A stretch of DNA of 64,000 bases, from positions 12,338-76,337 of the forward strand of contig CAKZKR010000109.1 in assembly GCA_937124615.1 (NCBI GenBank), in the 5' to 3' direction. A program made the translations under genes and the position numbers. Shown here piece by piece: positions 12,680 to 54,392 of the stretch. The stretch comes from an uncultured bacterium (GTDB lineage Bacteria > Hydrogenedentota > Hydrogenedentia > Hydrogenedentales > Hydrogenedentaceae). Positions within the stretch are counted from its first letter, which is position 1; the number at the start of each line of letters is the position of its first letter. The notes under the pieces were generated by a model. It did not search any database. It had not been told where the DNA came from and saw nothing but the letters and a program-made list of their open reading frames with translations.

Positions 12680-13067
12680 CTTATGTCCTTTTCAAAATAG
12701 GTGGGATTTTAACATAAATTAAGATAATAGTTAGATACAAAATATTCAAGAATAGTTTCAATAACTTTTAGTTTCTGAATAAATAAAGAAGGTAGATATT
12801 AAGGAATTACATAATAAGATTAAATACATTATCTGATGACTTTGAAGAAGTAGAAATATGAACATGGTTTTATTGAGTAAGAGAGGATGATATTAATTAA
12901 ATATTTGTATACGGTTAGAATTTATTTATAAGGCTGTTGTATGGAATTTGTTTTCGTATCTATCCAATAATTTAATTATTGAAATAATAAAATTTGAGTT
13001 AAAGGAACAAAGTTCGTGTTAATAAAAATAAAAAACATATAATGATTATATATCTTTTAAAAAAGGT

Positions 13068-13232
13068 GCGCACGGGCATTTCTATCGGAACAGGCATAGG
13101 AGGGGGGATAGGAGCCCGTGCGCTGGGGAGGGTACTGTGCAGGGTAGTGAGGGCTGTGTGTGTGGTAATAATTATTGTTTGTACCTGTGGTCTGGGTTGG
13201 GAGGAAGGCCAGATATAGCAGGGCCAAGTTTT
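13068..13232. ncRNA. Candidate structured small RNA or regulatory element (GC-rich island in an AT-rich spacer), strand unresolved
   Basis: A perfect 10-bp inverted repeat GCGCACGGGC...GCCCGTGCGC encloses ATAGGAG-GGGGG-ATAGGAG. On the + strand it is flanked by A6 (a U-tract on the minus strand) and followed by a G-rich stretch with multiple GGA/GGGAGG motifs. Confidence 0.3.
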
Positions 13233-13645
13233 TGTAAACTTACCTCACTTTCCTCACAGGAAAACTATTCAATTTTAATAGAACTTATTCCTAATTTATT
13301 TATACTATGAACGCCTTAAAAGTTTCAAAAGTTTACAAATTTTTTTGTGTAAAAATCTATAAAAAACAATTTATATAAATTGTTAATTACCTTTCACCCA
13401 ATATTATAACATAAAAAAGTTATAAAATCAAATTTATTAACAAAAAATTACATATCAATTATAATAAAATAATTTGGATATTTATTATATAAAATTTCTG
13501 TATACTTATATGAGAATAAAAGACCGATTTATAAAGCGAATAAAGAAGAACTTAATGTAAAATAAAATAAGAAAATGATGGAAATTAAAACAAGGGTGTT
13601 TTTTATTATAAAAATATAAATGTTTACAATAAAGAGTTAATTAAG

Positions 13646-13695
13646 GATAATAATAGAACTTGTATATTGGAATTACTCTATAATGATAATAGAAC
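13646..13695. promoter_or_regulatory. Direct repeat GATAAT(AAT)AGAAC x2 in the fliM upstream region (candidate regulator binding sites), with a possible TTCAAA-N18-TATAAT promoter just downstream (13741-13768)
   Basis: Two copies at 13646-13659 and 13685-13695. A TATAAT hexamer lies at 13763-13768. Confidence 0.25.
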
Positions 13696-13789
13696 AAATG
13701 GATAGTGATTTTACAATTAATTTTATCTTAGTGATTTATTTCAAAAATGGGGTGTCTATTCGTTATAATCAAATAAAAGGGTTATAACA

Positions 13790-14794
13790 ATGGCAGATAT
13801 TTTAAGTCAGGACGAGATCGACCTACTATTAGGTTCTGTTACCACTGGAACTGTTGATACTATAAAAAGAGAGGAACAGGAAGGCGAGCAGAAGGTAAGT
13901 GTCTATGATTTTCGTCGTCCGGAACGGGTTTCGAAAGAACAGTTAAAGGGATTACAAAGTATATTTGAATCTTTTGCCCGTGAACTTACAATTGTTCTTC
14001 CCCCTTATTTTCGTACTATAGTTCGTGTTGATTTGGTATCTATTGATCAATTGACTTATGATGAGTTTATTCTTGCCATTTCCCGACCAACTTGTTTGAT
14101 TGTAGTTAATATGTCTCCTTTGGATGGGGCCGGAATTTTAGAATTGAGTCCCACTGCAGTTTTTCCTATAATCGATCGGGTATTAGGGGGAAAAGGAAAA
14201 ATAATACCGGAGTTGCGGGAATTAACAGAGATAGAGGAGCGCATCATAGGGCGTATTGTAGATATGATGTTAAATTGTCTAAAGAGGGCATGGGAACAGG
14301 TTATTGAATTAAATGCTCGGGTCGAATCAATAGAAAGTGACCCTTTAATAGTACAGATTGTCGCAGGTAGTGAGATGACCGTTCTTGTAAGTTATGAAAT
14401 TCATGTAGGTGAGAATACGGGAACGATAAATTTTTGTATTCCTTTAATGGTATTAAATCCTCTTCTCGACCAGATATTGAAGATGGCTCATTATGCACAC
14501 CGAGTTAGTCCTGAAGAAGCAGAAATGACGCGTATTATGTTGTTAAAACTACTATTAAATGCAAATATAAAGATGGATACAATTTTAGGGAAGGTGAAGG
14601 TGGAAATGAATGATTTGTTACAATTGAAAAAAGGAGATGTATTGGTCCTGAATAGAAATGTTGAGGAGCCTATTATAGTTGAAATTGAAGGTTTACCAAA
14701 ATTAAAAGGAACAATCGGTAGACGAGGAGAGGAAATGGCCTTGCGTATATCTTCTATTATTAGGGATGAAAAAAATCCTGAGAATTTTTTATAA
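13790..14794 (+). CDS. fliM: Flagellar motor switch protein FliM
   Basis: N-terminus MADILSQDEIDLLLG (the CheY-P binding motif of FliM). 334 aa, with a FliM middle domain and a SpoA-like C-terminus. Confidence 0.9.
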   Translation: MADILSQDEIDLLLGSVTTGTVDTIKREEQEGEQKVSVYDFRRPERVSKEQLKGLQSIFESFARELTIVLPPYFRTIVRVDLVSIDQLTYDEFILAISRPTCLIVVNMSPLDGAGILELSPTAVFPIIDRVLGGKGKIIPELRELTEIEERIIGRIVDMMLNCLKRAWEQVIELNARVESIESDPLIVQIVAGSEMTVLVSYEIHVGENTGTINFCIPLMVLNPLLDQILKMAHYAHRVSPEEAEMTRIMLLKLLLNANIKMDTILGKVKVEMNDLLQLKKGDVLVLNRNVEEPIIVEIEGLPKLKGTIGRRGEEMALRISSIIRDEKNPENFL

Positions 14795-14806: not shown

Positions 14807-15760
14807 ATGAAGGTAAATGAAGTCATTGAATTGTTTTTCAAAGGGCTGGATGATGTTTTAATGTCTTTGGGGACTGGGGGTAATAAATATGAAGTTTGTG
14901 AGGTCAGATTTATGAAGATGAACGATGCAAAATCGAGTGTTGGTGAGCAAGATATTGTTTTGTGGGGAAAGGTGGAAAAAGAGCAAGGAATGATATTGTT
15001 ATTTCTGAATGATAATGAAGTTCGAGCATTAATAGGTTCCGTTGAGGGGACAATTCCAGAAGATATAAATGAATCTGTACTGAATACTTTAAAGGAATTA
15101 GGGGATGCATTTTTAGGCGGTGGATTGAGTTCTTTGGCACAATTAGCAAAAAAAGGAGTAGTTCAATTTGAATCTACAGGGATTTTGAGAGGGAATGAAG
15201 TTTTTGAGAGTCCGTTTTCTTCAAGAATTGAAGATCCTGTAATATATGGTTCGGTTAAGGTAGAGGGAAGTATTCATTTTACATCTCCATGGAGAATAAT
15301 ATTTGATAACCTATTGAAAGGATGGTTTTCAATAGATGAGGAAAATGAAAATTCAGCAGAACGAGATCCCATGTTGGCACAGGAAGGAATAGAATCGTTT
15401 TTAAATAATGAGTTATTGAAAACAGAAATAGCAAAACGAGAAATAGAAAAAGCAACTACAGGAGTAAAACCCGTGAGCACAAAGTCGACGGATTCCAGAT
15501 ATCGCAATTTAGATGTTATTTTGGATATTCAGGTAGAGGCAACAGCACGGTTGGGGAGCGTTGAGATGCCTCTGGCGACGGTATTGAGTTTGGGGCCGGG
15601 TTCTGTAATTAATGTTGGACATGAGGTCGATAATCCCATTGAGTTGTATGTAAATAATAAATTAATTGCAAAAGGCGATGTTGTTATTGTTGATGAAAAA
15701 TTTGGGATTCGAATAACAGAGATTGTAAGTCCTCAAGAACGAATAGAGAGTTTACAGTGA
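14807..15760 (+). CDS. fliN: Flagellar motor switch protein FliN/FliY (SpoA domain at C-terminus with N-terminal extension)
   Basis: C-terminal LDVILDIQVEATARLGSVEMPLATVLSLGPGSVINV...ELYVNNKLIAKGDVVIVDEKFGIRITEI is a SpoA (FliN) domain. 317 aa fits the longer FliY-type protein. Confidence 0.85.
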   Translation: MKVNEVIELFFKGLDDVLMSLGTGGNKYEVCEVRFMKMNDAKSSVGEQDIVLWGKVEKEQGMILLFLNDNEVRALIGSVEGTIPEDINESVLNTLKELGDAFLGGGLSSLAQLAKKGVVQFESTGILRGNEVFESPFSSRIEDPVIYGSVKVEGSIHFTSPWRIIFDNLLKGWFSIDEENENSAERDPMLAQEGIESFLNNELLKTEIAKREIEKATTGVKPVSTKSTDSRYRNLDVILDIQVEATARLGSVEMPLATVLSLGPGSVINVGHEVDNPIELYVNNKLIAKGDVVIVDEKFGIRITEIVSPQERIESLQ

Positions 15761-16515
15761 GTATCGACGACGAGAAAATACTCTGGCAAAAATACAAAGA
15801 AGAAAATGATGAATCGGCTCGTGAAACATTGATATACAAATACATGCCGGTTGTTCGATTCATTGCAGGGAGGATTGCTATCCATGTGCCTCCTTCTATT
15901 GAAATGGATGATCTTGTTGGTTGGGGTATTGTTGGTTTGCTGGATGCTATGGAAAGATATGATTATAAACAAGATACTCGTTTTAATACGTATGCATCTA
16001 TTCGTATCCGTGGGACTATCTTAGACCAGATTCGGTCATTGGATTGGGCCCCTCGTTCGTTAAGAAGTATGGCTCGGCGGGTAGGTGCTGTTTCAGAAAA
16101 ATTAAGACATGAAAAGAGAGGGGAACCTACCATTCATGATATAGCCAATGCTTTAGGTGTTAGTTCTGAAGATATAGAAGAAACTGTTGTAAATTTACAA
16201 ATGGTTCAGGTCCTATCATTAGACCATTTTGCTATATCTGAGGATGATGGGGCGGAACGAACAAGGGAGATTAATGTCAATGCTTTTTATCCTTCCCCTG
16301 AAGAAGTAGCTCGTCAAAGAGAGTTGCAAGAGTTACTTGTTGAAGCAATTATGAAATTACCTGAACAACAACAAAAGGTTTTAAATCTTTACTATTATGA
16401 AGAATTAACCTTGAAAGAAATAGGTGAAGTTCTTCAAGTTTCTGAGTCACGGGTTTGCCAGATTCATGCAAGTGCCGTTAAAACATTACGCGAGTTGGTA
16501 AAATCATGGGTATAG
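15757..16515 (+). CDS. fliA: Flagellar sigma factor FliA (sigma-28, WhiG family)
   Basis: GTG start overlaps the fliN stop (GTGA). Sigma-70 regions 2, 3 and 4 are recognisable, ending in an HTH (LTLKEIGEVLQVSESRVCQIHASAVKTLR). Confidence 0.85.
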   Translation: MSIDDEKILWQKYKEENDESARETLIYKYMPVVRFIAGRIAIHVPPSIEMDDLVGWGIVGLLDAMERYDYKQDTRFNTYASIRIRGTILDQIRSLDWAPRSLRSMARRVGAVSEKLRHEKRGEPTIHDIANALGVSSEDIEETVVNLQMVQVLSLDHFAISEDDGAERTREINVNAFYPSPEEVARQRELQELLVEAIMKLPEQQQKVLNLYYYEELTLKEIGEVLQVSESRVCQIHASAVKTLRELVKSWV

Positions 16516-16518
16516 TTT

Positions 16519-16845
16519 ATGCCAATGCCTATTGATCCAAATACAGAGATTATGCGGGTAAGCATTGCGGAACGCATTCAACAAATTTCCGACAGGGCGT
16601 CTTTATTGGGGCAGGTGCGTCAATCTTTGAATGAAGAACAACATAGGGTAGTGGATGAAACACAAGTGAAAGAGATGCAACAGAAAAGTGAGCAGGTCGA
16701 AACAGAACTCAAAAGAAAAAATCCTTTTTTAGGACGTAGACAAAGACTGAAGGAGGAGAAAAAAGAACAGTCTCAAAGAGAAGAAATAATAGAAACTTAT
16801 GAAGATAGAAAAGATGATGGTTCTCACCTGGATTTACAAGCGTGA
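16519..16845 (+). CDS. Hypothetical charged coiled-coil protein, flagellar-operon associated (FlgM-like role possible but no clear similarity)
   Basis: 108 aa, K/E/Q-rich, immediately downstream of fliA. Confidence 0.35.
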   Translation: MPMPIDPNTEIMRVSIAERIQQISDRASLLGQVRQSLNEEQHRVVDETQVKEMQQKSEQVETELKRKNPFLGRRQRLKEEKKEQSQREEIIETYEDRKDDGSHLDLQA

Positions 16846-16848
16846 ATA

Positions 16849-17754
16849 TTGGAATCAAAAGAAGATAGCATCAGGTTTTTTGAGATGACATTATTGATTG
16901 TTATTACATGGTTGTGTGTTTTAATCGTTGTATTCTGTTTATTTTATTATGTATGGGATGACCGGAATAAGAGGAAGCTTCATGAACATCGTAGGGTAGA
17001 AATTAGTGAGTTAGCAATGGTATTTCAGACTTTGAGGGATGTTGTGTCGGAACAGAAAATACTTGCAAAAGAATTTAATGAACAGGTGGAAGAGAAGTTA
17101 TTATTAGTCCGTACTATGGTAAATGAATCTCAGAGTAGGATGAAAAAGATACAGCAGGAGATATCCGAACAATATCAAACATTGAAAGATTTGCAGGAAC
17201 AAATTGATAGGATTGTTTGTCAGAAGAATGCCTTGTTAGATATATCAGCGAGAGATGTAAAATCAGTGGAGACAATTTCTATCATAGAGGCGGAATCTGT
17301 GTATGGGGAATTGACGAATAATTTAGAAGTAGAGAAAGATAAGAATGTTTTTCATTATGGTTTTGATGAAAGGGATCGTGAAGATGTTGTTATTGATGAT
17401 AGGAATAAGGATATGCAGGTAGCTCTATCAAAAGAGATTAAACAAGAGGAATTAGAAAAGGATGATGAAGAAAGAGGTAAAATAGGAAAAGGCCAAGAGA
17501 ATATTAGGGAAGATTATCGTCCTTTGTTAGTAGGTTCTGTAGATGAGGGAATCCAAGTTAAGATGGAAAAGACACCAATATCTAATCAGTATAATGTTGA
17601 AGAAAGAAATGAGTTAACTCCTATTCAAAAAATGGTATTGGAATATCACAATGCAGGAATGACTACTGGAGAAATAGCCAGGGAATTAGGAAAAACAAAG
17701 GGAGAGGTACGTCTTATTTTAAGCCTTGCACTTTCAAAGCATAATGAAGAATAA
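16849..17754 (+). CDS. Hypothetical membrane-anchored coiled-coil protein with C-terminal sigma-70 region-4/LuxR-like HTH
   Basis: One N-terminal TM helix (LLIVITWLCVLIVVFCLFYYVW), a long coiled-coil, and a C-terminal LTPIQKMVLEYHNAGMTTGEIARELGKTKGEVRLILSLA. The real start is possibly ATG at 16885. Confidence 0.5.
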   Translation: MESKEDSIRFFEMTLLIVITWLCVLIVVFCLFYYVWDDRNKRKLHEHRRVEISELAMVFQTLRDVVSEQKILAKEFNEQVEEKLLLVRTMVNESQSRMKKIQQEISEQYQTLKDLQEQIDRIVCQKNALLDISARDVKSVETISIIEAESVYGELTNNLEVEKDKNVFHYGFDERDREDVVIDDRNKDMQVALSKEIKQEELEKDDEERGKIGKGQENIREDYRPLLVGSVDEGIQVKMEKTPISNQYNVEERNELTPIQKMVLEYHNAGMTTGEIARELGKTKGEVRLILSLALSKHNEE

Positions 17755-17781
17755 AAAGTAACTCAATATTTAAGATATATT

Positions 17782-19014
17782 TTGTGTCTGGAAGTTGAAA
17801 TGTTAAACGAAATACCTTTTATCCCGTATAATCAAATATTGCCTCACTATGCGTGGATTAAAAAATTTGAGAATGATGTAATACAGGGAATGGTTCGTAG
17901 TAGTGGTACTGAAAAATGGGTTGAATGGAAAGGTGCTCGTATCCCTTTACCTAAAGATAGTGAACTGCCGGAGGGGGCCTGGCTTCAAATCCGTATTGTA
18001 TCTACTTCTCGGGGATATGAATTGGATATTGAATTGCTGAAGGGTTCTAATGTTAATACCGCATCCCCTAAAGTTTCGGACTTATTGTCAAAGACACAAC
18101 AGAATTTTTTAGGCAAGGATCATGCTATTTATGAACTTGTACAAAAAGTTATCGGTTACAATCCAGATTTAGTAGGTAAGATAGACTTGATGACAAAACT
18201 TTTCTATAAGTGGTTTGATGATGCGAATACAATAAATCAGTTGTTTGCTAATATAAATAAAATTATTCAGGAAGCCATAGAAAAAGGGGTTCTTGATAGT
18301 TCATGGTTAAAAATTTATCCTGGAAATATTGTTTTTCAACCTAATGAAAAAATAGATTGGCAGGTAATCGGTAATTTCTTTAAGTGGCAAATGCAAAATT
18401 TAAGTTTTGAGAAACAATTATTTCTGAAAGAAGAAGGTGCAGAATCTAATATTCAAAAATCCCTAATTGAAATAAAGGATTATCGTGTTCTTCAAGCATT
18501 ATTAAAAAATGAGTCTTTTGTTGGTTTTCTTAGAAGTAAAGGTTATTATCAAGAGTTTCAAAAGAACTTAGATACGCTCTTTTCAAAGTTTATGACAAAT
18601 CAATTATTAAATTTGATTAATACAAATTATAGTTACCTCGTATTGGACTTACCTGTAAGTGTTCACGATGGATTTAATCGTGTTTGTATTCATACTTGTT
18701 TCTCGAGAAAGGAAGAACAAAATAAAGGGAAAAAACATCAATATGCTGTTGTTGCTTTTGATATAGAACTGATTAATGCAGGGAAAATGTGGATAGAACT
18801 TCGTTGGTTGGAAGATACATTGGATTGTTTGTTCAGAGTTGTTGAGAAGGAAACAGAAAGAATATGTAAATGTTCTTTTAATGAACTGGAAGATAGTTTT
18901 AAGTCATTAGGATTAAAGAATATAAACATTCGTATTCAGAGTTGGGATGGAGACCGAATAAAAAGTATGGTTTCTCTTCTGGAGTCCATTGAAAATAAAG
19001 GGTGGTCTGTATGA
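17782..19014 (+). CDS. Hypothetical protein, flagellar-operon associated (positional candidate for a FliK-like hook-length regulator)
   Basis: 410 aa with no motif I can name. Its position directly upstream of the FlhB-C-terminal-like gene mirrors the fliK/ylqG-ylqH arrangement. Confidence 0.35.
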   Translation: MCLEVEMLNEIPFIPYNQILPHYAWIKKFENDVIQGMVRSSGTEKWVEWKGARIPLPKDSELPEGAWLQIRIVSTSRGYELDIELLKGSNVNTASPKVSDLLSKTQQNFLGKDHAIYELVQKVIGYNPDLVGKIDLMTKLFYKWFDDANTINQLFANINKIIQEAIEKGVLDSSWLKIYPGNIVFQPNEKIDWQVIGNFFKWQMQNLSFEKQLFLKEEGAESNIQKSLIEIKDYRVLQALLKNESFVGFLRSKGYYQEFQKNLDTLFSKFMTNQLLNLINTNYSYLVLDLPVSVHDGFNRVCIHTCFSRKEEQNKGKKHQYAVVAFDIELINAGKMWIELRWLEDTLDCLFRVVEKETERICKCSFNELEDSFKSLGLKNINIRIQSWDGDRIKSMVSLLESIENKGWSV

Positions 19015-19310
19015 ATAAAGATGAGCAAAATAAAAAAGATAATGATTTACATATTAAAAGAGCCATTGCTTTAAAGTATGAAGTACATAAGGATAATGCT
19101 CCTCGTGTTATTGCAAAAGGAGAAAGATTAACAGCAGAACGGATTATTGAACTTGCTCGCGAAAAAGGAATCTTTATTCATGAAGACCCTGAACTTGTAA
19201 TTCTATTATCAAAAGTGGATGTAGGAACAGAAATTCCAGAGATTTTGTATCGTGCAGTGGCGGAAGTCCTTGCATTTGTTTATCGAATGAATCAAGAACT
19301 TCGTAAATGA
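19002..19310 (+). CDS. FlhB C-terminal domain-like protein (EscU/YscU/HrcU-family small protein, YlqH-like)
   Basis: 102 aa. IALKYEVHKDNAPRVIAKGERLTAERIIELAREKGIFIHEDPELVILLSKVDVGTEIPEILYRAVAEVLAFVYR matches the conserved FlhB-Cterm family. Confidence 0.8.
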   Translation: MVCMNKDEQNKKDNDLHIKRAIALKYEVHKDNAPRVIAKGERLTAERIIELAREKGIFIHEDPELVILLSKVDVGTEIPEILYRAVAEVLAFVYRMNQELRK

Positions 19311-38956: not shown

Positions 38957-39511
38957 ATGATGTTTCCAAAATTAAAAAAAAAGAACTGTAATAAGGATAT
39001 GACATTCTTAACTGAAACATCAAAAGGTTTTACTTTAATTGAGTTAATAGTCGCTTTAGCTGTTTTAAGTATAGCAGTAACGGGTTTGGTTCAGATGTTC
39101 TCATTAAGTTTAAACCTGGCTCAAACATCTCAAAATGCTATATTGGCCGGTAATATTGCATATGATAAATTGGACTATTTAAGAAACTGTCCGGAAAAGT
39201 TTATTTGGAAGGTTTCCGATAGTGTTAATCCGGAGGATTTTTTCTCTATTCTTACCTCTGAAGATGAGGCCAAAGCGGGAAATGTATTAGAAGTCCCAAT
39301 AACTGTTCCTCCCGACTGGGCGAGTTTTCGGAAATATAAAGATGTTTCACAAAAATTTCGCTGGAAAGCATTTGGAAAATTAGTGTCAAATGGTAAAGAT
39401 TATTATGAGGTTGTAGTTATAGTTATTTATAAAGAATTTGGTCGAATAAAATATTATACTGCGAATTCAATTATACCTTGTTTCCAAATAGATAAGGTAA
39501 TAAAGAAATGA
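38957..39511 (+). CDS. Prepilin-type N-terminal cleavage/methylation domain pseudopilin (GspH/I-like)
   Basis: KGFTLIELIVALAVLSIAV is the type IV pilin N-methylation motif. The real start is probably ATG at 38999. Confidence 0.75.
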   Translation: MMFPKLKKKNCNKDMTFLTETSKGFTLIELIVALAVLSIAVTGLVQMFSLSLNLAQTSQNAILAGNIAYDKLDYLRNCPEKFIWKVSDSVNPEDFFSILTSEDEAKAGNVLEVPITVPPDWASFRKYKDVSQKFRWKAFGKLVSNGKDYYEVVVIVIYKEFGRIKYYTANSIIPCFQIDKVIKK

Positions 39512-40140
39512 AGACTATTAATCGAGTAACGAAGAATGGATTTTCTTTAATAGAAGTTATTACTGTTTTGGCTATCTTATCTGTATTGTCAACTATAGGT
39601 GTAGTTATGTTCGGTAAAATAATGGATTACCGACGACAATCTGAAATAAGGCAATCCCTAAATATAAATTACTTACGATTATCAAATAGACTACAGGCAG
39701 ATTTTGACCAGATTGTTTCTCCAACATTTACACAGGGGCGTTTAACTACGATTCGGCATGTTGAAAATGAAAAAAGATATCAATCTGTTCCTCTGGATGA
39801 TGATAGGATTTCATTCCCTATAATGTATGTGGATTCTGAAGATAGAAATACTGTTGTTCAAATATTCTACTATATTGACCGAAGTTTGGGGGGGGCCCCT
39901 TCTCTTGTTAGAGTAATTAGCCCTGTGGGACAGAAAGAACCAAGTGGAGCAAGAGAAATTATTATGACAGGTGTACTTGCAATGAAAGTTCATTGTTATG
40001 ATGGGAATAATTGGTTAGAAGAGTGGAATAAGCCTTTTTATCCGAGAGCCGTAAAGGTAAGTTTAGTGTTGGCAGATGAAAATAGGATTTGGGAACAAGT
40101 AGTTCGTGAAAGCACTTTCTGGTTAGGGAATATCTTATGA
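39508..40140 (+). CDS. Prepilin-type pseudopilin (GspJ-like)
   Basis: NGFSLIEVITVLAILSVLSTIGVVMFG. Confidence 0.7.
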   Translation: MKTINRVTKNGFSLIEVITVLAILSVLSTIGVVMFGKIMDYRRQSEIRQSLNINYLRLSNRLQADFDQIVSPTFTQGRLTTIRHVENEKRYQSVPLDDDRISFPIMYVDSEDRNTVVQIFYYIDRSLGGAPSLVRVISPVGQKEPSGAREIIMTGVLAMKVHCYDGNNWLEEWNKPFYPRAVKVSLVLADENRIWEQVVRESTFWLGNIL

Positions 40141-41138
40141 GAATGATATTTATTAAAATACAAAAGAACTCATGGAAACCTGATAATAAGGGTGTGGCGC
40201 TCATAATAGCCATATCTTTATTGGGGGTTTTTGCTCTACTTGGTATGTATTATGTGCGTGATGGTGAGACAGAGATAAAAAGGACAGCCCTTCTTCTGGA
40301 TGAAATGAGGGTAAGAGAATATGCGAAAACGGGTGTTAGTTCGGCTCTTGTAGAATTGGAAAAAGCATGGAAATCAGATACAACTCAGGATTTGTTAGAG
40401 AAATGTCCTCTTGAATTTAGTTATCCATACTATAAACAAGTACATAAGAGTGATAGGTCTTTGTCATTAGAACCATCCGATACAATGGATGTTCGTGTAA
40501 AAGTCTGGATAACAGATGAAAGTGGGAAAATAAATTTGAATTGTACTCCTGCGAGTGTACTCCAGAAAGTTCTTAATATAAACGGGGAAACTGCAAGAAG
40601 AATTGTTTCCAACTTACCTAATCCAGGATTTTCTTCTTCATCAGGGAAATGGTTTTATCTTGTGGAAGAGTTATATGGTCCAAATGGGATGATTCAGGAA
40701 AAGATTGATAAGAAAATATTGAATTTTGTATCAACCTGGAATGCAGGGAATCCTAATACTCCCATTCCCTATTTAAATGTTAATAAGACATCTGTTGAAA
40801 TTTTGATGGCTTTGTTTAATATAAGTTCTGAGGAGGCACAAAAAGTTATCGATTCTCGACCTTTGAAATCAATGAATGATATTGTGAAGTTACTGGAAAA
40901 GTCCCCGATGGGATTTAATGTAAAAGTTGATGATATGTCCTCAAACTGGCAATTTCCTTTCACAGATAGGTCAAATAGTTTTAAGATTATAGTAGAGGCA
41001 GAATTGAGTAGAGTTGTTTCTGGAAAGAAGTATAACCCTGTTTATGCATCAAAAGAAGTAGGAGTTGTATTTGTTGATGGGAGTCCAGTGGTTGTTTGGA
41101 ATAGAAGTATTCCTGCAGAAAAAATAAAAAATAGATGA
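40137..41138 (+). CDS. General secretion pathway protein K-like pseudopilin
   Basis: N-terminal hydrophobic segment (VALIIAISLLGVFALLGM) plus helix-hairpin-helix-like ILNINGETARRIV / VNKTSVEILMAL segments typical of GspK. Confidence 0.6.
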   Translation: MRMIFIKIQKNSWKPDNKGVALIIAISLLGVFALLGMYYVRDGETEIKRTALLLDEMRVREYAKTGVSSALVELEKAWKSDTTQDLLEKCPLEFSYPYYKQVHKSDRSLSLEPSDTMDVRVKVWITDESGKINLNCTPASVLQKVLNINGETARRIVSNLPNPGFSSSSGKWFYLVEELYGPNGMIQEKIDKKILNFVSTWNAGNPNTPIPYLNVNKTSVEILMALFNISSEEAQKVIDSRPLKSMNDIVKLLEKSPMGFNVKVDDMSSNWQFPFTDRSNSFKIIVEAELSRVVSGKKYNPVYASKEVGVVFVDGSPVVVWNRSIPAEKIKNR

Positions 41139-41157
41139 TGATATAAGGAGAACAGCG

Positions 41158-42369
41158 ATGGCAGAGAAGAACGCTGAAGGAATTAAAAAAGTTCGCAAAT
41201 CGACAAAAGGGAAGGTACAAAGTCTTGTACAAATTGTTAACGAAGAGGAAGTTATTCGTCGAGAACCTGTTTTTAATAATACGGGATCTATGAGTTTTTC
41301 ATTTATAAAAAGAGGAACCGTACGGTATCAAGAAATAACCGATTTTCTAAGACAATTGATAATGCTTTTAGAATCGGGGACGCCTTTATTGAAATCATTA
41401 AAAACTTTAGCATTGCGAGGTCAATCTGATGCCATCCGTGGACTTGTTAATGACATGGCGTTGTATGTTGAGGAAGGAAATCCCTTATGGCAAGCGTTCG
41501 ATAGACATCCTCGTTATTTTGATACTGTATTCGTTAATCTAATTAAAGCCAGTGAAGCTAGTGGAACACTGACGACAGTATTACAGCGACTGGTAGATTA
41601 TCGACAAAGGAGAGATTTACTCCGTAGAAAAGTGAGGGGAGCCATATTTTATCCGATAGTGCTTGTAATTGCGTGTCTGGGGGTATTGTTACTGCTTACA
41701 AATTTTGTAGTTCCACAATTTCAGGATATGTATCAAAAGCAAAATATAAAAATTCCTCCTGCAACTGAGTTGTTTTTTAGTGTTTCCGATTGGTTCCGTG
41801 TGTGGTGGTGGTTACCTATTGTATTGATACTTATTTTGATATTGTTATATCAAGTATGGTTTATTCGGAATCCCCTACGACGGTTATCGGCAGACCGGTT
41901 TAAATTAAAGATTCCGATTATAGGGAAAATTATTCATAAATATGCGATTGTTGAGATGATGAGGACCTGGTCCTTGTTATTGAGAAGCGGTCTTTCTATG
42001 ATGTCTTCGTTGGAACTTACTAAAAATTCTATACATAATCAAGCCGTAGCTCAAAGTTTACAGTCCTTGCGTGATTCCATTGAACGGGGCGGAGGTTTAG
42101 AAACCCCCTTACGGGCTTCTGCTGATGTAATACCTCCTGTTGTTGCCGATATGTTAATAACTGGGGAGGAATCGGGGAGTATCGATAAAATTGCAGAACA
42201 AATAGCGGATATATATGATAATGAGGTTCAGGTAGCAGTCAATACCTTAGGAGAAGCCTTACAACCTATATTTACAGTGATTGTAGGAATTATTGTAGTT
42301 ACATTGTTCATCTCATTGTTCTATCCAATGATTAGTATGATAGAACAAATAACAAATGCCAGCGTCTAA
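41158..42369 (+). CDS. Type II secretion / type IV pilus platform protein (GspF/PilC family)
   Basis: 403 aa. Duplicated T2SSF domains with three TM segments. The IFYPIVLVIACLGVLLLL pattern is typical. Confidence 0.85.
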   Translation: MAEKNAEGIKKVRKSTKGKVQSLVQIVNEEEVIRREPVFNNTGSMSFSFIKRGTVRYQEITDFLRQLIMLLESGTPLLKSLKTLALRGQSDAIRGLVNDMALYVEEGNPLWQAFDRHPRYFDTVFVNLIKASEASGTLTTVLQRLVDYRQRRDLLRRKVRGAIFYPIVLVIACLGVLLLLTNFVVPQFQDMYQKQNIKIPPATELFFSVSDWFRVWWWLPIVLILILILLYQVWFIRNPLRRLSADRFKLKIPIIGKIIHKYAIVEMMRTWSLLLRSGLSMMSSLELTKNSIHNQAVAQSLQSLRDSIERGGGLETPLRASADVIPPVVADMLITGEESGSIDKIAEQIADIYDNEVQVAVNTLGEALQPIFTVIVGIIVVTLFISLFYPMISMIEQITNASV

Positions 42370-51944: not shown

Positions 51945-52580
51945 ATGCCAATGGATCCTCTTGAAATTATGTTTAAAGGTGGGATTCTGATGTGGCCTAT
52001 CATGCTCTGTTCTGTGATAGGTGTATGTATTATTATTGAGCGTTTCTGGTTCTTACGAAGAGCCGGGATTGATACAAGTGAGTTTATGGATACCATTCGT
52101 CAGGTACTTCGGCAAAATCGTATTCAAGATGCGATAGATATTTGTAATCGTGTCGATGCTCCTGTCGCGAGGATATTAAAGGCGGGAATTTTAAAGTTTA
52201 AGAAGTCTAAAGAAGAGATTCGAGAATCTATTGAGGATGCGGGACAAATGGAAATACCTCGGTTAGAAAGGTATTTATCTGCTTTGGCTACATGTGCCAG
52301 TATCGCTCCACTGTTAGGGCTTCTCGGGACAGTTCAAGGTATGATAAAGTGCTTTGCTGCAATTCAAAATAAAAGGGGACAGGTTAACCCTTCTGACCTT
52401 GCAGAAGGGATTTCGAATGCCTTGATTACAACTGCAGCGGGTTTAACAGTGGCAATCCCTCTTCTGGTATTTTACAATTATTTTGTGTCAAGGGTAGATA
52501 ATATGATTGTTGAGATGGAAATAAGCTCCTCTGAATTGGTTGATTTGCTTACACGACATCAAGGAGACAAGGAGATTTGA
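51945..52580 (+). CDS. exbB: MotA/TolQ/ExbB proton-channel family protein
   Basis: 211 aa with three TM segments. C-terminal TTAAGLTVAIPLLVFYNYF is typical. Confidence 0.8.
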   Translation: MPMDPLEIMFKGGILMWPIMLCSVIGVCIIIERFWFLRRAGIDTSEFMDTIRQVLRQNRIQDAIDICNRVDAPVARILKAGILKFKKSKEEIRESIEDAGQMEIPRLERYLSALATCASIAPLLGLLGTVQGMIKCFAAIQNKRGQVNPSDLAEGISNALITTAAGLTVAIPLLVFYNYFVSRVDNMIVEMEISSSELVDLLTRHQGDKEI

Positions 52581-52581
52581 T

Positions 52582-53043
52582 ATGAAGTTTAAAAGGAAAC
52601 CGAACCAAAGTAAATTGATTAAAGCGACGATAGATTTGACCCCTTTAATTGATGTTGTATTCCAGTTGTTATTATTTTTTATGCTTACATCAACCTTTGT
52701 TGTACAAGCATCTATACCTGTAGAATTATCGAAAAGCGATTCTTCAGAGCAGTTGGAACAAAAAGATGCAACGGTAACATTAGCATATGGAGAAGGGGGA
52801 CCTGACAACCAAGGGGAAATCTATTATACAGAAGATAGTGAAATTCCTGTTAAAAGTTGGTATGAGTTAACGCGAGCATTGGAGAGTTTTTATGATAGGA
52901 GACCTGAAGGTCTTCTTCTTATTCGTCCTGACCGTCGAGTACCTACAGAAAGATTAGTAAAAGTACTGGGGATTGCAAATTCCGTTGGAATAAAGCATTA
53001 CGGGATAGCTGCGATTCCTTCAACAACAGAAACAACTCAATAA
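52582..53043 (+). CDS. exbD: ExbD/TolR biopolymer transport protein
   Basis: MKFKRKP...IDLTPLIDVVFQLLLFFM is the ExbD N-terminal TM signature. The RBS caaggaga is 6 nt upstream of ATG 52582. I reject the upstream in-frame ATG at 52540, which overlaps exbB. Confidence 0.8.
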   Translation: MKFKRKPNQSKLIKATIDLTPLIDVVFQLLLFFMLTSTFVVQASIPVELSKSDSSEQLEQKDATVTLAYGEGGPDNQGEIYYTEDSEIPVKSWYELTRALESFYDRRPEGLLLIRPDRRVPTERLVKVLGIANSVGIKHYGIAAIPSTTETTQ

Positions 53044-53059
53044 GATACGGATTATAACG

Positions 53060-54043
53060 ATGAAAAGGCGCACGCGGAAATCCGTGCGCAAGCACGAAAA
53101 AAAGTATGAATTTGAAGAAAAAACTCAAGAGACCCTTGATTTTTCTAAAATATCCGATGTGATTGTTTTACCTAAGACAGAAGTAAATGGTGTTCAATAT
53201 GAAATTTCAACAAGCCATCAGGGCGATTTATTGTTGCAGTTAAGAAAAGACCGGAATCGTTTCATTAAAACAATTATTTTTGCCCTAATTCTTCATCTTT
53301 CTGCAGTTACTCTCTTTAAAATTGTTGTGTATATACCACGCTCTGACCTTCAATACCTGGATATTCGTGTTATACAGACAGATATGGACAGTAGTCCCCA
53401 TTCCAATGTAGCATCTCGACTTAAGTTATCAAAGAACATGGAAAATGATGATGAAGATACAGAATTTAATATTAATGAATTAAAACAATCAAGTACTTTT
53501 GAACTTCCTAAAATTGAGTTTGAGGAATTAGAAAAACTTAGACTTCGTAGGACACTGGTAGAAGAAGAAGTATCCTCGAAAACTTTACCAGAGGAATATA
53601 AAGATAGTTGGGCTCAATTTGGAGCAGGAATCAATAGAATAAGAGAATCTATAAGTGCTTTAAGTCCATTTTCATCTACTATAGTCAAAGAAAATGGTGA
53701 TACTCCTAATGCTCCTTTAATAAGGCAAAATATAGGAAATGGTATTGAAATTGTTTTCCGCTGGATTAATCCTCCATATAACAGGTCTATTTTGTTTTTA
53801 CCAGGTTTGTTGGAAATGTCAAGGAAATCAATAATTGATGAAGAAAAAGATTATGATTTTATGCTAACAGTATTACCTGATGGAACAGTGTCGCGGGTAA
53901 TTGATTTGAACATTATTGAAGATGATCTATCAAAATATATTGAAGGAGAAATTAGTAAGATTCGTTTTGAACCTTTGATAAACGCTGATTCTGGAGAACA
54001 ACAGGTAACTATTCGTTATCATATATCCGGAGTCATACTATGA
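53060..54043 (+). CDS. TonB/TolA-like protein (single TM anchor, acidic linker, putative TonB_C-like C-terminus)
   Basis: The TM helix IIFALILHLSAVTLFKIVVYI lies ~70 aa from the N-terminus. Gene position after exbB-exbD. The C-terminal fold assignment is tentative. Confidence 0.45.
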   Translation: MKRRTRKSVRKHEKKYEFEEKTQETLDFSKISDVIVLPKTEVNGVQYEISTSHQGDLLLQLRKDRNRFIKTIIFALILHLSAVTLFKIVVYIPRSDLQYLDIRVIQTDMDSSPHSNVASRLKLSKNMENDDEDTEFNINELKQSSTFELPKIEFEELEKLRLRRTLVEEEVSSKTLPEEYKDSWAQFGAGINRIRESISALSPFSSTIVKENGDTPNAPLIRQNIGNGIEIVFRWINPPYNRSILFLPGLLEMSRKSIIDEEKDYDFMLTVLPDGTVSRVIDLNIIEDDLSKYIEGEISKIRFEPLINADSGEQQVTIRYHISGVIL

Positions 54044-54387
54044 TTGAAATATCAATAACAGGGGCATTTATCATCTATTCATTTATTATCGCTTTTGCAG
54101 GTATTATTTTATGGGGACTCTCCGAAATGGGTACTCGGAGAATATATACAGTGTTTAAAAGCCAGAATGTATGGGAATGCAGTTATTGTGCTTTTGTATA
54201 TCTGGATATGGAGGCAGAGGAAATATCCCAGTGCCCGCGATGTTATAGTTATAATCTTTTATCACATAATAATAAAATAATTCAGCAAGAAGGAGAGGAA
54301 GAAAATAAAAATACAGAACCCCGTCGGAATCCTTCTCACAAAAAACATCCTCACGCACAACATCGAGGCCCCCGGAAGAGGAGATAA
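54040..54387 (+). CDS. Small membrane protein with zinc-ribbon (CxxC...CxxC) and basic C-terminal tail
   Basis: N-terminal TM helix, then CSYCAFVYLDMEAEEISQCPRCYS, then a His/Lys/Arg-rich tail. Confidence 0.4.
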   Translation: MIEISITGAFIIYSFIIAFAGIILWGLSEMGTRRIYTVFKSQNVWECSYCAFVYLDMEAEEISQCPRCYSYNLLSHNNKIIQQEGEEENKNTEPRRNPSHKKHPHAQHRGPRKRR

Positions 54388-54392
54388 CCCAT

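Follow-up and report, generated by a model that had tools for sequence, protein, structure and literature searches.

SwrB (YlxL) of Bacillus subtilis and FipA, formerly FlrD, of gammaproteobacteria are flagellar assembly factors that act via protein contacts at the membrane (PMC4526659; bioRxiv 10.1101/2021.04.30.442225; PMC11620751). SwrB is a single-pass protein whose cytoplasmic C-terminus was established by experiment; a critical stretch lies right after its transmembrane (TM) helix, its middle is poorly conserved, and a conditionally required residue lies near its C-terminus. It genetically activates the flagellar type III export apparatus and has been described as confined to Bacillus and without a homologue of known function. 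FipA, a partner of FlhF, has 163 amino acids (aa), with a TM helix at residues 6-28, a coil and the domain DUF2802 at residues 68-135. It binds FlhF, which it brings to the pole; G110, E126 and L129 are universally conserved, and FlhF binding requires G110 and L129. The flhA-flhF-flhG-fliA-che operon ends with the FipA gene, and reports of the protein are confined to gammaproteobacteria that have polar flagella and FlhF/FlhG. Beside flrD/fipA in Pseudomonas putida, and convergent with it, lies an uncharacterised FliA-dependent fliK2-flhX operon. FlhX of Helicobacter pylori (HP1575) can partly substitute for the C-terminal domain of FlhB; in Salmonella that domain, once cleaved, is a lock that the FliK C-terminus removes, flipping export specificity. 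Here we compare with these systems three open reading frames (ORF1, ORF2 and ORF3) of a flagellar operon from an uncultured bacterium of the phylum Hydrogenedentota. They lie in a stretch of 64,000 nucleotides (nt), hereafter the window, taken from contig CAKZKR010000109.1 of assembly GCA_937124615.1 (positions 12,338 to 76,337, forward strand).

The original prediction had placed three ORFs between fliA and a gene resembling the C-terminal part of FlhB, at 16519-16845 (108 aa), 16849-17754 (301 aa) and 17782-19014 (410 aa), and had recognised no flagellar family in any of them. All three are present there as conserved coding sequence, and their conservation across Hydrogenedentota loci makes them real, selected genes; public records label each of them 'hypothetical protein'. 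The lack of a family holds for ORF1, which is a phylum-specific orphan. It does not hold for ORF2, which passes the cut-off of Pfam DUF6115, nor for ORF3, whose orthologues match the Flg_hook domain of FliK in 30 cases out of 30. ORF2 is, and ORF3 appears to be, a new and remote member of a flagellar family that is known but little understood. Homologues and gene callers place the starts of ORF2 and ORF3 further in than listed, at ATG 16885 and ATG 17800. The best explanation of the locus, which we hold with somewhat more confidence than doubt, is that a SwrB/FipA-class ORF2, a FliK2-FlhX pair and ORF1 share one flagellar operon, of which the three ORFs form the distal half, translationally coupled and conserved as a unit across Hydrogenedentota; this one judgement covers the explanation as a whole. 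The genes concerned are:

16519..16845, + strand: ORF1, a 108-aa orphan helical protein, conserved in orthologues and without known relatives.
16885..17754, + strand: ORF2, a SwrB/FipA-class single-pass membrane protein of 289 aa (Pfam DUF6115, 31.6 bits); as listed, the ORF starts at TTG 16849 (301 aa).
17800..19014, + strand: ORF3, a FliK-like ('FliK2'-type) protein of 404 aa with a Flg_hook match; as listed, the ORF starts at TTG 17782 (410 aa).
19011..19310, + strand: a stand-alone FlhB C-terminal paralogue of FlhX/YlqH type, 99 aa (Bac_export_2, 77 bits); as listed, the ORF starts at 19002.

ORF2 homologues begin MT(L/V)L, and gene callers agree on the start at ATG 16885. The single N-terminal TM helix described from the sequence is borne out: residues 2-24 of the 289-aa form are the only hydrophobic segment of the protein. 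The basic flank DDRNKRKLHEHRR follows this helix, and by the positive-inside rule the C-terminus is therefore predicted to be cytoplasmic, with virtually no periplasmic part. The coiled coil is shorter than the approximately 200 aa first ascribed to it, since only some 85-115 aa show heptads and the remainder is an acidic linker. The parts of ORF2 are as follows:

16888..16956, + strand: transmembrane helix, residues 2-24 of the 289-aa form (Kyte-Doolittle 19-residue mean 3.03).
16987..17244, + strand: membrane-proximal conserved helix (FQTxRDxxxxQKxLAxxFN) and heptad region (alignment; heptad scan).
17245..17487, + strand: acidic linker of variable length (median net charge in the family -6.5 over the 60 aa before the helix-turn-helix).
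17620..17748, + strand: C-terminal three-helix, helix-turn-helix (HTH)-like domain with the signature G270...E286..L289 in 301-aa numbering (AlphaFold, Foldseek, DUF2802 match, hhalign to SwrB).

In the same 301-aa numbering, the invariant residues of the membrane-proximal helix are T61, R63, Q69, K70, L72, A73, F76 and N77. The linker is poorly predicted in the AlphaFold model. Orthologues range from 265 to 479 aa, a size difference that appears to lie in the acidic linker between coiled coil and HTH, so the length of this linker seems unconstrained. The last ~45 residues form three helices with a predicted local distance difference test (pLDDT) score >90, and Foldseek superposes them on LuxR/GerE and sigma region 4 domains to within 0.5-1.3 Å over 43-48 residues, at E-values of 0.06-0.5, as expected for so small a domain. 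The three-helix HTH recognised at the outset is thus borne out by the predicted fold. A profile of this C-terminal domain gave 636 matches, the best 150 of which all belong to the ORF2 family, the short ones being fragments. The profile also picks up generic HTH repeats, as in a protein of 559 aa from an unrelated source, methyltransferase-like at its N-terminus and with an ORF2-like HTH (SKVLEYYKAG..VS.IAD.LGI) in four tandem copies.

The comparison with SwrB carries the assignment of ORF2. ORF2 scores 31.6 bits against DUF6115 (PF19610, gathering cut-off 27 bits), residues 185-293 aligning to model positions 35-133, and the family is matched by 21 of 21 ORF2 relatives (best E-value 5e-9); DUF6115 is not mentioned in the literature searched. 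A Bacillus velezensis record filed as a plasmid holds the gene order cheD-sigD-[155-aa hypothetical]-rpsB. The 155-aa protein has H13, L48, F51 and L53, the residues found functionally important in the study of SwrB, and by these residues and its position we identify it as the SwrB orthologue. It scores 35.0 bits against DUF6115, and at the level of sequence profiles the SwrB orthologue and ORF2 belong to one Pfam family. When the ORF2-family profile is aligned with SwrB's C-terminal domain (hhalign E = 7e-5), AGMTTGEIARELGKTKGEVRLIL is set against QGLTPAEIAKRMQSGKTEIELFL, with the signature G...E..L common to both. The likeness extends to the single N-terminal TM helix with a cytoplasmic C-terminus (predicted for ORF2), the conserved stretch just past this helix, the acidic and poorly conserved middle, and the conserved helix-rich C-terminal end (...G...EIA......K.E..L.L). 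Both genes are also found at the end of a flagellar operon, 3' of the gene for sigma-28, as fliA-ORF1-ORF2 in ~40 loci and as sigD-swrB in B. velezensis. ORF2 differs in that ORF1 intervenes between it and fliA and in that it is almost double the length (289 against 155-167 aa), from the inserted coiled coil and linker. Moreover, the hhalign alignment covers the C-terminal 38 residues only, and neither the junction residues L48/F51/L53 of SwrB nor its H13 have demonstrable equivalents in ORF2. Flk (Fluke) of Salmonella, which authors in the field have compared with SwrB, is anchored at its C-terminus rather than its N-terminus and inhibits late export rather than activating export; no sequence relationship is detected or claimed.

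A second comparison leads to FipA. Its domain DUF2802 (PF10975, gathering cut-off 33.5 bits) is a model of 68 positions that spans residues 68-135 of VpFipA, and it too is matched by 21 of 21 ORF2 relatives (best E-value 1.8e-5). In ORF2 the match is ungapped and runs from model position 41 to 66 over residues 268-293 (301-aa numbering). G110, E126 and L129 of FipA fall on G270, E286 and L289, all three invariant in the ORF2 family. FipA/FlrD of Vibrio, Pseudomonas and Shewanella and ORF2 share the succession of TM helix, coil and small C-terminal domain, and their genes lie in or at the end of an operon containing fliA. In P. putida, flrD/fipA moreover adjoins fliK2-flhX. Unlike FipA, with its 163 aa, ORF2 has 289 aa and stays below the DUF2802 cut-off. 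The architecture of ORF2, first judged unusual for a DNA-binding protein, is therefore one that is common to SwrB (DUF6115) and FipA/FlrD (DUF2802). The Hydrogenedentota proteins would thus form a sequence bridge between SwrB and FipA, treated in the literature as unrelated and lineage-restricted, and the two probably share ancestry and perhaps mechanism.

Some observations on Bacillus, Pseudomonas and other records were made along the way. Searches of a plasmid collection for FipA gave LuxR-type noise only, and one Bacillus 'plasmid' match proved a false positive. Two Bacillus 'plasmids' of PLSDB, NZ_CP083716.1 (806 kb) and NZ_CP093325.1 (5.5 Mb), are chromosome sequence; the former carries fla/che, rpsB, tsf, ffh and smc, and calls its SwrB a 'hypothetical protein' and its YlqG orthologue a 'glycosyl transferase'. 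The unannotated 1.17-Mb 'plasmid' pPL1 of Pseudomonas silesiensis holds a secondary flagellar cluster (flhB-flhA-flhF-fleN-fliA) with four genes of ~274 aa in tandem behind it that are flagellin-like by position only; no DUF2802-like gene was seen in this cluster. A membrane protein encoded after fliA is not a general rule, as nothing comparable was found in Rossellomorea or Deferribacter. On the megaplasmid of Thermomicrobium roseum, a 127-aa single-pass protein without HTH or DUF6115 match follows fliA, and this locus may be another sigma-28-linked membrane module.

ORF3 and the gene after it make up the second element. The start of ORF3 at ATG 17800 is marked by the invariant M7, with GGAAG upstream. 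Flg_hook (PF02120, cut-off 29.8 bits), the C-terminal, T3S4 switch domain of FliK, is found in all 30 orthologues at a best E-value of 4.7e-11, and by this profile match ORF3 would be a divergent FliK-type protein. This agrees with the original remark that the 410-aa ORF occupies the place of fliK before the FlhB C-terminal gene. The same prediction held that ordinary FlgM-, FliK- or FliS-type proteins, if a profile search revealed them, would count against it, and this is in part what emerged: ORF3 is FliK-like, and ORF1 shows no similarity to FlgM. The FlhB-like gene starts at ATG 19011, a codon that overlaps the ORF3 stop (ATGA). Its product aligns to Bac_export_2 model positions 262-335 of 335 with 77 bits (cut-off 24.4) and reaches 96.3 bits against TIGR00789 (flhB_rel), below the cut-off of 117.35; it shows no NPTH motif and no TM segment. 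As it matches FlhB only past the autocleavage site and lacks NPTH, it is a paralogue of FlhX/YlqH type.

The pair resembles fliK2-flhX of P. putida, FlhX of H. pylori and ylqG-ylqH of Bacillus in its protein of ~90-100 aa corresponding to the cleaved FlhB C-terminal domain. As in P. putida, the gene with the FliK C-terminal domain stands directly before flhX and is coupled to it, and ylqG and ylqH overlap by 4 nt, just as ORF3 and flhX do. A link to FliA recurs as well: fliK2-flhX of P. putida is FliA-dependent, and ORF3-flhX is co-operonic with fliA. Unlike the Pseudomonas, Helicobacter and Bacillus pairs, ORF3-flhX shares its operon with fliM, fliN, fliA and a SwrB-like gene. ORF3 and Bacillus YlqG align by hhalign at E = 1e-3 with a probability of 21%, YlqG itself having no Flg_hook match. 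A FliK-domain protein co-translated with a free FlhB C-terminal domain could plausibly tune the export switch. On one complete Hydrogenedentes chromosome, ffh-rpsP-rimM-trmD comes after the seven-gene block, and ylqG-ylqH of Bacillus likewise lies a few genes from ffh-rpsP-rimM-trmD; this shared proximity may be coincidence or an old linkage.

ORF1, whose start codon lies 3 nt past the fliA stop, gave no consistent Pfam or NCBIfam match among 31 orthologues. None of the 31 matches Pfam FlgM at an E-value of 1 or better, hhalign gives a probability of 0.2% against the annotated FlgM of T. roseum, and no similarity was seen to other small proteins encoded beside fliA; the Pfam and hhalign comparisons thus lend no support to reading ORF1 as FlgM or as some other small flagellar protein already known. 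In the AlphaFold model a single helix spans residues 7-67 (pLDDT >90), and the tail, first basic and then acidic, is of low confidence. Orthologues share the motifs MPxPIDPxTE..R...ERIQQ..DR, NPF.GRR and, at the C-terminus, H.LD..I. An exploratory co-evolution test (mirror-tree, with partial correlation of distance matrices) gave 0.26-0.38 for ORF1 and FliA, against 0.52-0.61 for the FliM-FliN control. From the coupling to fliA and this modest tracking of distances, a FliA-related role for ORF1 is a reasonable guess, but only a guess.

The setting of these genes is a seven-gene block in the order fliM-fliN-fliA-ORF1-ORF2-ORF3-flhB(C-term)/flhX, tightly packed, with junctions of -4, 3, 39, 45 and -4 nt and with the fliA start overlapping the fliN stop (GTGA). 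Its first three genes are:

13790..14794, + strand: fliM, C-ring switch protein (TIGR01397, 301 bits, cut-off 219.6; Pfam FliM and FliMN_C).
14807..15760, + strand: C-ring protein of fliN/fliY type, 317 aa, with a long N-terminal extension (Pfam FliMN_C, 76 bits; TIGR02480, 86.1 bits, cut-off 84.05).
15757..16515, + strand: fliA, sigma-28 (TIGR02479 FliA_WhiG, 248 bits, cut-off 189.6).

A convergent ispF stands 3' of the block, and no further flagellar genes were found in the window or in the 10 kb past its 3' end. The tight junctions, the conserved order and the lack of other flagellar genes nearby together make the seven genes look like one self-contained operon. Database searches returned 18, 51 and 11 homologues of ORF1, ORF2 and ORF3, respectively, the closest from metagenome-assembled genomes of Candidatus Hydrogenedens / Hydrogenedentota, and ~40 syntenic orthologues were identified. 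In a scan of one genome per species, which yielded 45 loci, nearly all labelled Hydrogenedentota and a few carrying other bin labels, the seven genes occur in identical order in essentially every sufficiently long locus, and the genes flanking them vary. The co-conservation with fliA that the original prediction had suggested looking for in the gene neighbourhood is therefore present. Median identity to the window proteins (best tblastn segment) is 55% for FliM, 37% for FliN, 59% for FliA and 59% for the FlhB-like protein, and 49%, 31% and 23% for ORF1, ORF2 and ORF3.

Based on these comparisons, we propose a mechanism in which the N-terminal helix of ORF2 would anchor the protein in the inner membrane, its membrane-proximal helix and coiled coil would probably mediate self-association, and the long acidic linker would carry the three-helix HTH-like domain. 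By analogy with SwrB and FipA, this domain could serve as a protein-docking module at the cytoplasmic face of the nascent basal body, where ORF2 may recruit or activate an early component of assembly or export, the precedents being FlhF for FipA and the type III export gate for SwrB. Sigma-28-dependent transcription would then be affected, if at all, indirectly through the assembly checkpoint. ORF3 and FlhX would supply a FliK switch-domain protein and, alongside it, a copy of the FlhB C-terminal domain that is 'cleaved' from the outset, and the pair may modulate the switch from early to late export specificity. ORF1, a single-helix protein made in step with FliA, might be a binding partner or regulator within the module.

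Several results weigh against this explanation. The DUF2802 score of ORF2 is 13 bits, under the cut-off of 33.5, and across the ORF2 family the DUF2802 matches are no stronger than those to Sigma70_r4_2. What ties ORF2 specifically to FipA is thus architecture, context and three residues, whose correspondence was read through model coordinates rather than a direct alignment. The SwrB orthologue itself gave no DUF2802 match, so the link between SwrB and FipA is transitive. No flhF or flhG was found in 623 kb of Hydrogenedentota sequence; the sole GTPase of signal-recognition-particle type near a block, and the only candidate for FlhF there, proved to be Ffh. The recognition helix of ORF2 keeps the conserved basic residues K284 and R288, and an argument against DNA binding from net charge had to be dropped, the charge being -3 for sigma-28 region 4 and +1 for the ORF2 HTH. 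For ORF3, the Flg_hook match at residues 312-387 reaches only 17.8 bits (E = 0.0029), under the cut-off, and a search of PDB sequences matched no solved FliK structure, only spurious de novo designed proteins. The distance matrices of ORF2 and ORF3 show a partial correlation of 0.44-0.55 (FliM-FliN control as above), which speaks for the explanation, but this signal between two fast-evolving genes may be a saturation artefact. Finally, the analysis demonstrates that the genes are real, the structure of their operon, its synteny, the family memberships and the fold of the HTH, while we infer the topology, partners and mechanism.

The HTH of ORF2 was first read as the mark of a membrane-tethered transcription factor or of an anti-sigma-like partner of FliA. 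As a transcription factor, ORF2 would use its sigma-4/LuxR-type HTH to bind DNA, for example flagellar promoters, in the manner of ToxR or CadC, with the linker giving reach and the acidic stretch possibly auto-inhibitory. This is arguable from the confident three-helix fold, which superposes on DNA-bound LuxR-family and sigma-4 domains, and from the matches of ORF2 to Sigma70_r4 (22.9 bits, cut-off 24.1), Sigma70_r4_2 (22.9, cut-off 25.7) and GerE (14.8, cut-off 23.5), all sub-threshold and recurring in all ORF2 members (Sigma70_r4_2 in 21 of 21). K284 and R288 and the near-invariance of the recognition helix across the phylum point the same way, and FlrD and YlxL/SwrB were both first described via effects on flagellar gene expression. 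However, with the central hydrophobic residue of the recognition helices as the anchor of the alignment, the ORF2 family has an invariant G-K-G-E-V-R-L-I-L where sigma-28 region 4 from these genomes has S-E-S-R-V-C-Q-I-H, so that E, L and L replace the invariant R, Q and H. BLASTP finds nothing between ORF2 and the adjacent FliA, and hhalign (probability 41%) places ORF2 on region 3, not on region 4; we therefore reject the HTH as a copy of FliA region 4. A strongly acidic linker precedes the HTH, and the relatives rely on protein contacts, FipA using the corresponding G and L to bind FlhF and SwrB acting as an activator of type III export. What ORF2 shares with ToxR and CadC, and with sigma-4 and LuxR-GerE domains, is an HTH of sigma-4/LuxR fold on a single TM helix; ToxR and CadC, unlike ORF2, combine a winged-helix domain at the N-terminus with a periplasmic sensor, whereas ORF2 is essentially without a periplasmic part. 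We thus consider a transcription factor quite improbable, and a protein-binding role for the HTH would be more likely than DNA binding, the case for docking resting mainly on the characterised relatives SwrB and FipA.

The other half of that first reading survives in a form centred on ORF1, in which ORF1, ORF2 or both would be an anti-sigma or partner-switching system for FliA, ORF1 replacing FlgM without homology and the sigma-4-like domain of ORF2 perhaps being a membrane-anchored decoy by which the inhibitor is kept, or passed on, at the export gate. The start of ORF1 so close behind fliA, in the same frame phase, suggests coupled synthesis, and a small helical protein with a low-confidence tail is what many anti-sigma factors look like. 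FlgM is likewise small, with a flexible tail, and encoded with flagellar genes, but the conserved part of ORF1 is N-terminal, and the two share no sequence similarity. The sigma-binding region of FlgM is C-terminal. In rank correlation ORF1 distances track FliA best (0.68; partial 0.38), yet the signal is weak, and under Pearson correlation ORF1 with the FlhB C-terminal protein (0.31) exceeds ORF1 with FliA. No flgM was seen in the seven-gene block or the window, the span of that search, and a normal flgM may lie elsewhere in the genome. Given also that ORF2 shows no specific resemblance to FliA region 4, we regard such a system as unlikely. A simpler account of ORF3, to which we allow an appreciable though clearly minor chance, makes it the organism's one and only hook-length ruler FliK, with the FlhB-like gene a spare part and no distinct FliK2-FlhX function. 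The FliK C-terminal domain in every orthologue, the tightly conserved length of ~390-410 aa expected of a ruler, the lack of another fliK in the window and the partial substitution by H. pylori FlhX for the FlhB C-terminal domain are all consistent with it. The ruler region of FliK is usually poorly conserved, but the N-terminal two-thirds of ORF3 hold conserved motifs, with an invariant Trp and Cys further on, and the tight coupling to an FlhX-type gene mirrors the fliK2-flhX pair of Pseudomonas, which coexists with a normal fliK.

The observation that started this work is largely correct, and ORF2 is better read otherwise than as an unusual architecture for DNA binding; the explanation we favour is a SwrB/FipA-class protein, a FliK2-FlhX pair and ORF1 in one operon. 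Little is understood of SwrB, FipA/FlrD or FliK2-FlhX, and work on each has kept to a single lineage, as though it were peculiar to that lineage. In a distant uncultured phylum, a SwrB-family protein with the FipA signature stands in one operon with FliK2-FlhX, C-ring proteins and sigma-28, and it is probable that the accessory proteins cooperate on the cytoplasmic side of the export gate, in connection with the specificity switch. ORF1 becomes a candidate new regulator, and three genes now called 'hypothetical protein' could receive informative names. A bolder proposal, which we think unlikely, is that SwrB and FipA/FlrD mark the two extremes of a single old and widespread family of flagellar assembly factors anchored in the membrane, bridged by the Hydrogenedentota proteins, and that the factor there works in one co-expressed module with FliK2-FlhX and ORF1, with ORF1 replacing FlgM as the link of the export switch to sigma-28 activity.

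The remaining features concern the head of the operon and the rest of the window, whose G+C content is 33-38%. In the fliN-type protein (317 aa) the FliN match is limited to the last ~80 residues, and its long N-terminal part gave no family match in Pfam or NCBIfam, the CheC-like domain of FliY included. Upstream of fliM lies:

12680..13789, + strand: AT-rich region of 1.1 kb, presumed promoter region of the operon.

The + strand of this region contains no ORF of at least 60 aa. Sigma-70-like hexamers occur at 13437-13465 (11/12), 13623-13651 and 13740-13769, a number not above chance expectation; the sigma-28 motif TAAA-N15-CCGATA was looked for in the window and not found, nor did any Rfam family match there. 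Within the AT-rich spacer, a G-rich island at 13040-13250 holds a perfect 10-bp inverted repeat, GCGCACGGGC...GCCCGTGCGC; the hairpin folds as RNA no better than shuffled sequence (z = -1.69) and has no Rfam match, and a 58-aa gene is called at the island on the public contig. Further along the window, a pseudopilin or type II secretion-like gene set (N_methyl, T2SSJ/K-like, T2SSF) occupies 38957-42369, and at 51945-54390 a MotA/ExbB-ExbD pair is followed by two ORFs without a family match.

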